Shown: piece after piece, positions 9,475 through 33,903 of the stretch | How the letters are laid out: each line of letters opens with the position of its first letter | How positions within the stretch are numbered: position 1 is the first letter of the stretch | NCBI GenBank assembly: GCA_030141605.1 | Contig: JAQGDQ010001476.1 | Span: 1 to 38,939, forward strand | DNA from: Tubiluchus corallicola | Lineage: Eukaryota > Animalia > Priapulida | Length of the DNA stretch: 38,939 nucleotides | Reading direction: 5' to 3' | Translations under genes and position numbers: made by a program | Notes under the pieces: generated by a model | What the model was told of the DNA's origin: nothing | The model's input: only the letters and a program-made list of their open reading frames with translations | Databases searched by the model: none

Positions 9475-9526
9475 ATGGATCGGCTTGATAATGACGACGG
9501 CTCTGGTCACAGTGACAGCGACTCCA
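9475..9526 (+). CDS. Putative first coding exon of the ANK-cGLR-ZER1 gene (MDRLDNDDGSGHSDSDS)
   Basis: GGCATGG Kozak-like context; strong donor CCA|GTGAGT (phase 1), phase-compatible with 10543. No homology recognised. Confidence 0.45.
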
Positions 9527-10542
9527 GTGAGTACATTTCTTATTAGATAACTATCTGCAGGTAGTTTTTACACGGGTAGCAAAAATCAGACTCCTAATCC
9601 TACTCCTTGTACCCGCCCGGTACCTAGGTGCCTGATTGTTAAGATTCAGCGGCAGTGAAGAAGTTGTAATGACTGATGTTCACAAATGAAAACAACCACT
9701 GGTACATTTTAACGAACTGAACTGTTATGTTAACAACATGCGTTTGTTTGTTACACCCTGAAAGCTTGAACACACGAGCTGTGACTCGAGAAAGTTGGTG
9801 TTTTCCAACACAAAACATTTGATTGAGTTTTTGTCTTCCGGACATTCATCATTTCATTGCAGACTTTGTCAGTTAGTCAGCCACGCCAGCCGAGGTACCG
9901 CGCTAAGCATTATTAATACACTGTAGGAATTATGGGAATAAAATAATCTAAATTATCCCTTTTGTGTGCTGTTAAACCTAACAATCTGTTTATTCGTATC
10001 TTTGTTATTGGCCTGAAATAGATTTTTAAAAGTTAATAAACAATTTCATTTGGATAATTAACCTCTTTGTGAACAAATCGTAGTTTGAGTGTCACCCCTG
10101 TGGCAAAAGTGGTTTGATCTGCCTTCTCCTTACTAGCTATTGTCCTGGTGCATTGCCAAGGCAGCAGTTATTACACTAGCACTGACTGAGATTATCATGA
10201 TACGGGTGCTCTTTGGCGTTACGCATATCGTAATAAAAGACATCGTGATACATCGATGTATCATCACCGGCGTATTTGTTGCATCTGTAGGAAGCTGAGC
10301 CTTCATTCATAACAGAGACTGTTTTATACAGTGAAACAAATGTCTCATTATTGTTGTTTCGCTGTGTAGAACTGTCCCAGGCCTGGTTTATAGATCCAGG
10401 TTTCACTGTGCTTGGAAATTTTGAAATTTGAAAAGGTCACGTGATGAATACTTTTCAAATGGTACAGTCTTTTACATTTACATGTATTTCGTGCCTCAAA
10501 TAAAACTAGTATGCACTGCTGTGTTTTTTTTACTTGATATAG

Positions 10543-10604
10543 GTTCAGTAGAGGACTGCGCAGTCTGTTTATCGGAAGAATGTCTTTGCCAAGTCTTACC
10601 AGAG
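10543..10604 (+). CDS. Putative second exon (SSVEDCAVCLSEECLCQVLPE), Cys-rich
   Basis: Acceptor TTTTTTTTACTTGATATAG, donor GAG|GTAAAG; phase 1 in and phase 0 out, compatible with the acceptor at 13908. Confidence 0.5.
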
Positions 10605-10884
10605 GTAAAGTTGCCGCTTTGCTTTATGCGCCATTTTGAGAAATCGAGCCATTCTTGTATGGGCTTGATCTAAAAGATTTTCAGCAGATTTTTTGAGAAA
10701 CCAAAAACCAGTAAGCGTATAATCTCCTCAAAGTTGTACTGGCAGAGACAAGCAAATGTGTTTCTTCATGTACATATTATGCTTTTTCTGCGAAATCGTG
10801 AGCACTCAAATTACAGTTGACCCTCGAATGAATGCACTGAAAGTGTCAGAGGAGGTCCGTTAATCAATGTTGGTGTATAGGTGC

Positions 10885-11310
10885 TTTGGTACTGCAGCAC
10901 CCCCTATTTTCACACAATATTATCGATAATATTCAATATAATAAGCCTTTTTCTTTAGTTCTTTATACTTGTACAGATCCAGAGCACGTGAGGGTAGTAC
11001 TGTTTGTTTCACAGTCCTGCACAGTGGTGTTTGGCTGTTGTGGGGACGCGGCCATGCGCACATGTCTGATCCCAGGTAGAGAAAGTACTGTCACTCACAC
11101 AGTTTGTTGTCAGTTGTCACGTGCTTTCCGTGAATTGATCAAGTATGAACTGTGACAATTTAGGCAGTTAGTAAGCAAAAAATATTCTTTTGTTTAGGAT
11201 TTTATCTGTTTATATGTAAACATTCATATGTTTGTTTGTTTTAAAATTACGATTACAAATTACAACAATAAAATTGCATATGTTTGTTTCATTTTACACA
11301 GTATTAAAAC
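10885..11310 (+). mobile_element. Dispersed repeat family C
   Basis: ACTGCAGCACCCCCTATTTT...CACGTGAGGGTAGTACTGTTTG...; direct copy at 23470-23905. Confidence 0.8.
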
Positions 11311-11560
11311 AATGGCTAAAAAGTTTCTGAAGCGGCTCCCTCAGTAATTTTAGCTACGAGTCACCACTGCCGTTAATACCAACTGACCGTTGATTCAAGT
11401 GTGTTTTCCCTGTGAAGGCGCAGTCAAACTTCAGCGCATGAGCCCAGTTTGTTTCAAAAAGATGTTTTAGAACCGTCCTGTTTGGAAAGAAACAATGTAA
11501 ATTGGATATAATTTCATTACAGACCCTCGAAAATTGTTGCACTCGCACTTTATAAAGAAG

Positions 11561-12240
11561 CCCTTTTCGTATGGCTTCATCTTGAAGTCTTATACAACTT
11601 ACGCACTACCTTTTTGTATGTATGGCTTCATCTTGAAGTTTTGTACCACTTACGTACTACCTTTTCGTATGCATGGCTTCATCTTGAAGTTTTGTAACAC
11701 TTACGCACTACCTTTTCGTACGCATGGCTTCATCTTGAAGTTTTGTACCACTTACGCACTACCTTTTCGTATGCATGGCTTCATCTTGAAGTTTTGTACC
11801 ACTTATGCACTACCTTTTCGTATGAATGGCTTCATCTTGAAGTTTTGTACCACTTATGCACTACCTTTTCGTATGCATGGCTTCATCTTGAAGTTTTGTA
11901 CCACTTATGCACTACCTTTTCATATGCATGGCTTCATCTTGAAGTTTTATACCACTTATGCACTACCTTTTCGTATGCATGGCTTCATATTGACGTTTTG
12001 TACCACTTACGCACTACCTTTTCGTATGCATGGCTTCATCTTGAAGTTTTGTAACACTTATGCACTACCTTTTCGTACGCATGGCTTCATCTTGAAGTTT
12101 TATACCACTTACGCACTACCTTTTCGTATGCATGGCTTCATCTTGAAGTTTTGTACCACTTACGTACTACCTTTTTGTATGCATGGCTTCATCTTGAAGT
12201 TTTGTAACACTTACGTACTGCCCTTTCGTACGCATGGCTT
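11561..12240. repeat. 51-bp minisatellite, about 13 copies
   Basis: Unit CCTTTTCGTATGCATGGCTTCATCTTGAAGTTTTGTACCACTTACGCACTA; the ORF track shows the matching 17-aa period. Confidence 0.96.
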
Positions 12241-12544
12241 GCGCCCCGGTCGTAACGTTGTATAAAACGTGTAAATTTAAACTCCCGCGATGAACGTATG
12301 GTGCAGCCATTTTAGTGGTAGGTCGTTTGAAGCAAATTTTGATAACATTACATAAGTTGTATACACGGGCTGCTAACCCAAATCACAGTAATAATTTGTC
12401 CAACAGATTATCACAATGATAACAATACTAGCACTTCCTGGGTAGAGATAAAATTTATTCGATAAAATTCTGCAGTTTTTCATTTACAAATTTGCTGCAT
12501 TCGCATCATTTACATTTGGTACACATTTCAAGCTGTCTGGATAA

Positions 12545-32345: not shown

Positions 32346-32431
32346 ACGTTGGTACACAGTCTAACGTACCTATTCTAGGGTATTTAAATGAAAGTTGACC
32401 ACATTTGGTATTTCCTCACATTTCTTTGTAG

Positions 32432-32535
32432 ATCTTTTGCACCATTACTTGCTCTGGTACAATGCGATGATACACCAGAAGCTCAGCTGTGGGCAGTCTG
32501 GACTCTTGCTAACCTGACGACTGTTTCTGAGTCTA
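32432..32535 (+). CDS. ZER1: ZER1-like exon 7
   Basis: [34 protein letters not shown] vs ZER1 'SFEPILRLLPQGISPVSQHWATWALYNLVSVYP'. TTTCTTTGTAG acceptor, CTA|GTAAGT donor, phase 2-1. Confidence 0.92.
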
Positions 32536-32586
32536 GTAAGTAGCATTGTCAGTTTCAGAGATTTGCTGGAATGTGAAAATGAGAAC

Positions 32587-32932
32587 GAGAGAGAGAGAGA
32601 GAGAGAGAGAGAGAGAGAGAGAGAGAGAGAGAGAGAGAGAGAGAGAGAGAGAGAGAGAGAGAGAGAGAGAGAGAGAGAGAGACAGAGACAAAGACAGAGA
32701 GAGAGACAGAGACAGAGACAGAGACAGAGACAGAGAGAGAGACAGAGACAGAGACAGAGACAGAGACAGAGAGACAGAGAGACAGAGAGAGACAGAGAGA
32801 GACAGAGAGAGACAGAGAGAGACAGACAGACAGACAGACAGACAGACAGACAGAGAGAGAGAGAGGAAAGAAAGAGAAAGAGGAGAGGGATAGTGAGCGA
32901 GTGAGAGAGAGAAGGAGAGGGAGAGAGAGGAG
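32587..32932. repeat. (GA)n/(GAGACA)n/(GACA)n microsatellite
   Basis: Direct observation. Confidence 0.97.
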
Positions 32933-33049
32933 CAGGTTTATGTTTAGCTGTTTGTCTGTTAGCTTTGTTGTTTGTTGTTCTTTGAATACAAGATGGCAGC
33001 ACCAAGTAAATAAAATCTCACATTACCTTGTCATGACTTTGTACAGTTA

Positions 33050-33663
33050 CTGCTTTTTGCATACAGGGCTTGCATCGGCAGTAACCCTGGATAAAACTTG
33101 TACATTAAAACTCCCGTGACGACTGTTAGGCACAGCCATTTTGATGGTAGGTCGTTTGAAATAAGGTTAGATAAGACTGTGTAAAGTTTGAAAAAATAAT
33201 CAGAACATTTATAGCACACATAAAACTTTAAATTAATGTATAAGACTAAATAAGACTCAATAAGACTAAAAATACATTTTTGGTTAGTGAGTACCAATCA
33301 CCAATTGGTAAAATGTGGTTGACTCACCTTGAAGGGACACCACTCATAAACCAAAAAGTATATTTCAAATCTTATTGACAAGATACAGTAATTTAATATT
33401 TTATTTGGTTAGTGACATGTGCACTACGAATGCTCGAGATTATTTATTTCAAACATTACTCAGTGTTATCTAAACTTATTTTAAATCACTTACCGTCAAA
33501 ATGGCTGCATCTAGCGGTCATTGCTGGAGTTTAAATTTACACGTTTTATTCAGCGTTACTGCCAACGCAAGCCCTGCATGCAAAAAGGCAGTGTGTAAGC
33601 GGTATAAAATTTCAAGACGAATTTTTAAGCTTTATGTAAGTGGAGGGTTTTCTTGTGCTTTAA
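33050..33663. mobile_element. Two family A fragments in inverted arrangement (33050-33293 minus; 33305-33663 plus)
   Basis: 33050-33293 matches 12620-12860; 33305-33663 matches 8005-8346. Confidence 0.75.
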
Positions 33664-33704
33664 GCCCTGATTAGTGAAAATGGTGAAAAAATTTGTCATT
33701 GCAG

Positions 33705-33903
33705 GAGAGACATATCGCGAAATGCTTAGAGATGACGGATTAGGCGAGCTAGGCGAGCTGGCTATGAGATACAAACATCAGGTGCTGGAATCTGATGGAC
33801 CATCCACCTGGACGATTGAACAACCAGAACGGGCAGATGTACTTAAGAAATTGGCGGAATCCATAAGTGAATCGGACCTGCAGCAGCATTCTGTTGCCTA
33901 CAA
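33705..33903 (+). CDS. ZER1: ZER1-like exon 8, chimeric: start of the ZER1 terminal exon fused to a deleted duplicate of exon 6
   Basis: CATTGCAG acceptor, phase 1. (R)ETYREMLRDDGLGEL resembles ZER1 'DKYCPLLIKEGGMPLL'; then RYKHQVLESDGPSTWTIEQPERADVLKKLAESISESDLQQH duplicates 31121-31301. Donor AA|GTACGT at 33904, or read-through to TAA at 34435. Confidence 0.8.

Follow-up and report, generated by a model that had tools for sequence, protein, structure and literature searches.

A candidate fusion of an ankyrin cGAS-like receptor with a ZER1-type ARM region in the priapulid Tubiluchus corallicola

Introduction

The cGAS-like receptors (cGLRs) characterised so far have double-stranded DNA (dsDNA) or double-stranded RNA (dsRNA) as ligands; those that sense nucleic acids have an isoelectric point (pI) above 8.5, and the ligands of acidic cGLRs have been raised as an open question (PMC9980059; here and below, statements drawn from cited papers refer to the parts of each source considered here). 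The curated list of cGLRs in the same work (Table S1) contains Priapulus caudatus XP_014668761 (P0125 below), and its supplements list Priapulus with 5 STING genes. ZER1 and ZYG11B are substrate receptors of Cullin-2 RING ligases (CRL2) in the Gly/N-degron pathway (PDB 7EP3-7EP5; PMC9741652). Here we describe a locus of the priapulid Tubiluchus corallicola (assembly GCA_030141605.1, contig JAQGDQ010001476.1, positions 1 to 38,939 of the forward strand; this whole stretch of 38,939 nucleotides, which is without N, is henceforth referred to as the window) in which an exon encoding ankyrin repeats and a complete cGLR is followed by a chain of exons derived from the ARM region of ZER1. Judged from sequence, the two parts probably form a single spliced fusion gene.

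Results

The enzyme lies in an open frame of 717 codons (13791-15944), of which a single phase 0-0 exon (13908..15884, +) encodes about three ankyrin repeats and the entire cGLR (Mab-21 and Mab-21_C), as read from Pfam, PDB and motif evidence. On the window's own frame Pfam returned Ank_2 at E 1e-12, and Mab-21 (E 0.0036) and Mab-21_C (E 0.046) both under the curated cut-off, while both domains score above the cut-off in two relatives, P0121 and P0001. The PDB match of the enzyme was cGLR1 (8gjy, E 0.039). The GS motif is present and the catalytic acids stand at amino acids 286, 288 and 398 of the model (E286, D288 and D398), and the published cGLR motif, h[QT]GS-X8-20-[DE]h[DE]h-X50-90-h[DE]h (PMC9980059), is found but for two departures: the [QT] position holds V, and ~109 residues lead up to the third acid. 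P0125 likewise has V at [QT] and a spacing of ~98 residues. Homology spans the nucleotidyltransferase core and the C-terminal helix bundle, with 33% identity to P0121 over the full length, and an AlphaFold2 model of P0121 (predicted local distance difference test score, pLDDT, 80.9; window frame included in the alignment) matched cGAS in Foldseek (E 3e-13, TM 0.74), so that the structural evidence comes by proxy, from the model of P0121 rather than that of the window's own protein. The cGLR domain is acidic (pI 5.3), as are those of most close relatives (pI 5.2-8.5, from rough domain cuts), which fits a ligand other than nucleic acid in light of the pI values reported for cGLRs (PMC9980059).

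Word-based protein searches found P0001 as the only full-length relative, and a profile built from the window cGLR and P0001 returned 223 representatives with E ≤0.001, the best 150 of which were examined. The ten best comprise four Priapulus caudatus and six Logan proteins, and ten further relatives that were looked up include clam, coral and mussel. In a tree of 28 rows (the window and 27 of the best 150 relatives) the window cGLR is sister to P0121 (97/98) and groups with the four Priapulus proteins, P0125 among them, in a clade of 11 rows (99/99). The last six residues of P0001 resemble a translated sequencing adapter, so that P0001 may also run on beyond its cGLR domain. Just 5' of the 13908 acceptor an in-frame ATG in strong context (13872-13907, +) would give a Met-Gly start with two nearby Cys, which we take to resemble a myristoylation/palmitoylation start; Met-Gly occurs at the aligned place in P0001, while none of the nine remaining close relatives has it. 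Such a Gly at the start of a protein with a ZER1-type ARM raises the idea of self-guarding.

We next consider how the cGLR exon ends. An earlier note, made from the sequence of the window, had placed a phase-0 donor at the close of the ankyrin and cGLR frame, 19 codons before its stop, and this is confirmed: GAGCAG/gtaagt at 15884 is in phase 0, lies 19 codons upstream of the TAG and is one of three perfect MAG/GTRAGT sites on the + strand of the window. Left unspliced, the GTAAGT and the 19-codon read-through tail (15885..15944, +) would form the end of a short isoform, and the codon use of this tail is not coding-like (p 0.40). When 12 close relatives were aligned, 10 ended 5-11 residues past a conserved W column, one before it and P0121 122 residues past it; the donor thus sits at the usual C-terminus of the cGLR family. 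Between the tail and the first ZER1-derived exon (15945-17180) there were 0 AATAAA or ATTAAA signals against 1.9 expected, which lends weak support to one transcript.

Downstream of the donor, the eight exons listed in the earlier note all have AG/GT ends, the phases 0, 0, 0, 1, 0, 2, 2 and 1 and no stop, and their derivation from ZER1 stands. They are (all +) 24171..24218, found by tblastn to ZER1 loci; 24857..25051 (ZER1 profile independent E-value, iE, 0.009); 25747..25843; 27410..27480 (Pfam ZER1-like_2nd, E 0.12); 29770..29885 (PDB ZER1, E 1.4e-10); 31112..31318 (PDB ZER1, E 1.3e-6); 32432..32535 (Pfam ZER1-like_2nd, E 3e-10); and 33705..33903, which is discussed below. A scan of 15890-24170 for open segments between AG and GT, which gave 27 rows at GC content >0.40, contained three further segments that chain in phase, 17181..17303 (phase 0-0), 18803..18861 (phase 0-2) and 23170..23224 (phase 2-0; aligned by the ZER1 profile), and the gap among them is filled by 21946..22020 (phase 2-2). 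The latter was chosen among 11 phase 2-2 candidates on account of its splice sites and its length and is the least certain of the four (all +), although its inclusion lifts the ZER1 profile score from 185.0 to 190.1. The four added exons together carry the phases 0-0-2-2-0, and the first of them, which is the first ZER1-type ARM exon, starts 1.3 kb past the 15884 donor. The chain after the donor matches the ZER1 profile at E 1e-59 (2e-57 without the added exons, as in the earlier chain), and the homology of its ARM domain to ZER1 is borne out by Pfam PF22964 and by PDB ZER1 matches.

The references were six ZER1 loci: L001, of vertebrate type with introns, L002, an intronless open reading frame, and four intron-bearing fragments (L003-L006). 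Scored against ZER1 without gaps and in the register fixed by the splice site, exons 17181 and 18803 together gave 17.0, compared with -53±15 for shuffles (0/20000 as high), a value equalled by 2 of 103,752 background 60-mers. Codon use is coding-like in exon 17181 (0/2000) and exon 23170 (p 0.001), and exon 18803 begins at an intron position common to L001 and L003-L006. Over ~390 residues the ARM homology amounts to 35% identity to L001 and 29% to L002, and seven window introns stand at L001 positions in the same phase, the last with an offset of 2 residues, which indicates that the ARM part was copied at the DNA level from a ZER1 gene, of which it represents the 3' half. Searched singly against PDB, exons 25747, 27412 and 24857 gave no ZER1 match; exon 31112 had no match among longer proteins by word search and none at ≥0.9 in the ESM Atlas; and a first metagenome scan gave no ZER1 locus.

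As the earlier note had stated, the N-terminal half of ZER1 was not found: for the VHL box and leucine-rich repeats (LRR; profile positions 1-360) nothing better than iE 7 was obtained among 2050 six-frame segments of the window, with a profile whose N-terminal half was built on L002-L006 only and which short diverged exons might escape. At the columns shared by the two ZER1s the ARM part retains 68 of 128 residues and has changed 60, yet its 383 codons are still open. In simulations of neutral decay, stop-free runs numbered 0/1500 at the observed change, 9/1500 at 25% and 48/1500 at 15%. That the ARM exons remain open despite their divergence, and that the 5' end of ZER1 was not found in the window, favours a transcript shared with the cGLR.

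With two inferred exons at its start, the complete model is a chain of 15 exons and 1146 codons with 0 stops and AG/GT ends throughout. The likely first coding exon (9475..9526, +; donor CCA/gtgagt) supplies an ATG and an acidic N-terminal stretch, is open in the chain and has coding-like codon use (0/2000 null stretches score as high). The likely second (10543..10604, +; AG/GT ends, phase 1 to 0) is Cys-rich, and its codon use is indistinguishable from that of intron (p 0.30); it loosely fits what we take to be the BC-box spacing L-x3-C-x3-V, and the ZER1 profile gives no support to a BC-box in this exon.

A second line of evidence comes from P0121, whose extension beyond the cGLR is one open reading frame, without the introns that interrupt the window and ZER1 genes at these places, and hence likely derived from spliced RNA or a retrocopy. 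Aligned without gaps to five consecutive window exons, in the best of 21 offsets, the 117-residue extension has 20 identities (z 3.6, p 2.6e-4), a score reached by 33 of 94,673 background windows; 8 of 19 residues are identical in register with exon 18803 (p 1e-4), exon 23170 gives p 0.02, and the part beyond exon 18803 alone gives p 0.0085. Compared with ZER1 itself in anchored blocks, the extension reached z 3.7 (1/4000 shuffles). P0121 therefore suggests a spliced fusion. It also bears on the junction, which the earlier note had drawn directly from 15884 to 24171. With four further exons in between, this is probably not the main one, and as the main model we rejected it, since over 61 residues its gapless score against P0121 was -62, whereas joining to 17181 gave -16; the likely junction is 15884 to 17181.

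Several observations weigh against reading P0121 as a relative that shares the fusion. Its extension was not called ZER1 by Pfam, the full profile (E 0.16) or HHalign (E 0.81), MAFFT aligned it to another ARM repeat, of the five exon blocks two are dissimilar to it (p 0.65, and p 0.55 for exon 21946), and both exon 21946 and the anchors were selected once the data had been seen. Furthermore, P0121, which may come from RNA or from DNA, spans the first ARM repeats only, and the other 149 relatives are without a ZER1 profile match (best E 0.03). Searches of the extension with phmmer, the ESM Atlas and Foldseek likewise gave no ZER1 match. Its single-sequence model is of low confidence (pLDDT 57.8); VIA-align matched it to generic helical repeats (Z up to 7.3), and ZER1 and ZYG11B are not among the 50 rows listed for it. 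No splice joint was seen in contigs of two sequencing runs, X1 and X2 (the latter possibly of RNA), which has no bearing on expression: the X1 contigs run straight through the 15884 donor and across introns and so behave as DNA. The comparison with X1 and X2 reached to 26300, save for 17400-20100; exon 17181 is covered by an X1 contig with zero differences, and X2 covered no ARM exon within 20100-26300, only a 155-base piece of the ankyrin-cGLR exon. This X2 piece (~90% alike at 14239-14391) has 5 of 6 listed differences, out of 15, silent, which suggests a close paralog or ortholog under constraint.

The chief rival to a single gene is that an ankyrin-cGLR unit ends at 15944 and a separate ARM gene follows, either with its own start or by splicing from 10604 to 17181 past a nested cGLR. 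This arrangement would be consistent with a cGLR frame that is complete when unspliced, with the 10 of 12 close relatives that stop there, and with the shared phase 0 of 10604, 15884 and 17181, by which skipping would be in frame. We nevertheless hold it to be quite unlikely, as P0121 continues in register, a perfect donor stands at the end of the domain, the tail is not coding-like and, weakly, the poly(A) signals expected before 17181 are missing. Overall, the donor at the family C-terminus, P0121, the open ARM exons and the weak absence of a poly(A) signal give the spliced fusion a high probability.

Having considered whether the ARM exons are joined to the enzyme, we turn to what they might bind. 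The residues of the ZER1 pocket are W552, N553, D556, G593, N597, E600, N633 and N679, and in ZER1 the change W552A abolishes peptide binding and N553A strongly lowers it (PMC9741652). With the numbering checked on L001 and L002, which give the expected residue at 8/8 positions, four of the eight are retained in the window and four are altered: exon 25747 carries W552V and N553S, exon 27410 retains D556 (its codon split at the 5' junction), exon 29770 retains N597 and E600 and has G593N, and exon 31112 has N633F and retains N679. The three residues that hold the amine (D556, N597 and E600) are thus all kept. What counts against a preserved pocket is that 4/8 compares with a background conservation of 53%, i.e. 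there is no special constraint, and that the chance of keeping three given residues is ~0.15.

The earlier note had proposed that the ARM acts as a sensor of Gly/N-degrons, and of this proposal a protein-binding module remains likely while the specificity for Gly is undermined by the pocket changes: since W552 is changed and W552A abolishes binding in ZER1 (PMC9741652), the Gly/N-degron mechanism is doubtful and the ARM probably does not read Gly ends as ZER1 does. The broader claim, a cGLR that senses protein rather than nucleic acid, agrees with the acidic pI, and its glycine trigger is weakened. We therefore regard as improbable a working fusion in which the ARM still reads Gly or small-residue N-degrons, so that the enzyme makes cyclic dinucleotides when a protease cuts or myristoylation fails. 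The retained D556, N597, E600 and N679, the acidic cGLR and the report that in the activation of NLRP1 the Gly ends made by proteases are read by ZYG11B/ZER1 (10.1101/2024.06.24.600508) would be in keeping with it, but W552V, N553S, G593N and N633F fall where both ZER1 references agree, and the first two are at the positions whose mutation abolishes or strongly lowers binding (PMC9741652). The lack of special conservation in the pocket is what would be expected if the ARM were a scaffold or potentiator that clusters or stabilises the enzyme, i.e. a built-in form of the ZYG11B-cGAS partnership that reads no ligand. ZYG11B binds cGAS and promotes condensates (reviewed in PMC11701242), and the surfaces involved may lie outside the degron groove (PMC13201589). 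However, the known link concerns vertebrate ZYG11B and DNA-bound cGAS whereas here a ZER1-type ARM adjoins an acidic cGLR, and dimerisation of ZYG11B depends on contacts of its VHL and LRR parts (PMC13201589), which are absent here; we consider a scaffold unlikely.

The 3' end of the chain is rearranged, and this, together with the variation seen in X1, speaks against an intact gene. Exon 33705-33903 (+), which the earlier note had placed last in the chain, is a chimera and does not finish the ARM: after an opening of ~19 ZER1-type codons it switches to a copy of exon 31112 (88% identical over 129 nt by blastn), by which a normal ZER1 end is ruled out for this exon. The last ZER1 helices are missing from the chain and were not found in the window by a six-frame profile search. 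Both deletions in the duplicated segment preserve the frame. The 33-bp minisatellite located behind exon 31112 then recurs as a second copy (33889..34665, +), and reading through this copy adds ~176 repeat codons up to a TAA at 34433-34435, with AATAAA at 34854. The listed X1 differences, from which the counts are taken, are amino-acid-changing in 5/5 cases in exon 24857 and in 7 of 10 changed codons of the 3' cGLR; X1 may be the window's own sample. This share of replacements is about what absent constraint would give, and is consistent both with recent decay and with an immune gene that evolves fast; immune receptors are in general expected to change rapidly in protein sequence.

A once-working fusion of which this copy is decaying, or was recently disrupted at its 3' end, would explain the chimeric last exon, the duplicated minisatellite, an inverted and broken copy of exon 32432 and the mostly amino-acid-changing X1 differences. 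Yet the chain runs for 1146 codons without stop or frameshift, its catalytic acids are intact and the deletions in the duplicated exon are both in frame, and we judge decay to be distinctly unlikely. The inverted copy (38681-38807, -; 90.6% identical) comprises the exon 32432 acceptor and the first 55 bases, is broken by a 53-bp minisatellite and may point to an inversion or to a paralog that lies beyond the window.

The introns are filled by at least eight long minisatellites (units of 23-91 bp) and by several dispersed repeats, and such surroundings favour the duplication of exons. Twenty copies of a 42-bp unit make up a minisatellite at 35353-36191 that is stop-free in two + and two - frames; this openness is probably incidental, and the repeat could conceivably be spliced in as a repeat-coded tail. 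A 155-codon frame at 22305-22772 (-), shown by X1 depth to be multicopy, seems to resemble the C-terminus of LINE-type retroelement proteins. Upstream, the 3' exons of a tektin gene lie at 2831-5367 (+; Pfam Tektin E 4e-18 for frame 2639-3103); those near 3432-3587 and 5147-5367 were identified by eye.

Discussion

Starting from the observed exon chain, homology, motifs and pocket changes, we infer an active enzyme and a ligand for the ARM. In the reading we prefer, and to which we give roughly an even chance, the locus encodes one spliced protein of ankyrin repeats, a cGAS-like enzyme and most of a ZER1-type ARM, acting as a protein-binding sensor or regulator of changed specificity. The ARM half of ZER1, introns included, would have landed behind a one-exon ankyrin-cGLR, and with the VHL-box and LRR half left out the product would lack normal Cul2 recruitment. 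The ligand bound by the ARM would be a protein, in the likeliest case a free peptide N-terminus gripped by D556, N597 and E600 under other side-chain rules, or alternatively a pathogen protein that targets ZER1. Ligand-bound ARM would then switch on the acidic cGLR, which would make a cyclic dinucleotide for STING. More tentatively, an old, lineage-specific cGLR may have captured the substrate-binding half of an E3 receptor, by which new N-termini, made by pathogen proteases or left by a block of N-terminal modification, or a pathogen protein aimed at ZER1, would be converted directly into a STING messenger.

As far as sequence can tell, the architecture is real, probably functional and apparently new within the cGLR family, and the fusion has better support than the earlier note could give it. 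The earlier note knew of no described protein built in this way, and our searches agree with it: no cGLR-ZER1 fusion was found in the literature searched by title and abstract, with subscription journals outside its scope, and Table S2 of PMC9980059 (3,832 rows; CDD-based and perhaps without a ZER1 model) has no ARM, HEAT, ZER1 or Zyg entry. A cGLR with a recognisable peptide-binding domain offers a concrete place to seek the ligands of acidic cGLRs. If the more tentative reading is true, the product would be a protein-sensing receptor of the cGAS family whose ligand site is readable from sequence. The fusion would also unite in one natural protein two families whose mammalian members, ZYG11B and cGAS, interact, and it might be an animal counterpart of integrated-decoy receptors.

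In plants, nucleotide-binding leucine-rich repeat receptors (NLRs) with integrated decoys have a host-protein domain built into an immune receptor. The window resembles them in carrying a fast-diverging host domain without its usual partners; the receptors are unrelated and the likeness is one of analogy only. The described systems closest to the locus are the animal ankyrin cGLRs (PMC9980059; P0125), with which it shares ankyrins before the Mab-21 fold, the GS..DE.D motif and the C-terminal helix; whereas those proteins end 5-11 residues past the W, the window has at this place a donor and 12 ZER1-type exons. Pd-cGLR and Sp-cGLR2, acidic cGLRs of unknown ligand, are comparable in pI (5.0, against 5.3 here); no ARM fusion is described for them in the portions of PMC9980059 considered, and the window carries a candidate ligand-binding domain. 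With ZER1 and ZYG11B the locus has in common the ARM homology, seven intron positions and D556, N597, E600 and N679, and it differs from them in that no VHL box or LRR was found in the window, the pocket is altered, the last helices are replaced by a duplicate and the ARM is joined to an enzyme. Finally, the mammalian ZYG11B-cGAS pair (PMC11701242, PMC13201589) brings the same two families together in innate immunity, but there ZYG11B is a non-covalent helper of a DNA sensor, whereas in the window a ZER1-type ARM would be covalently joined to an acidic cGLR.

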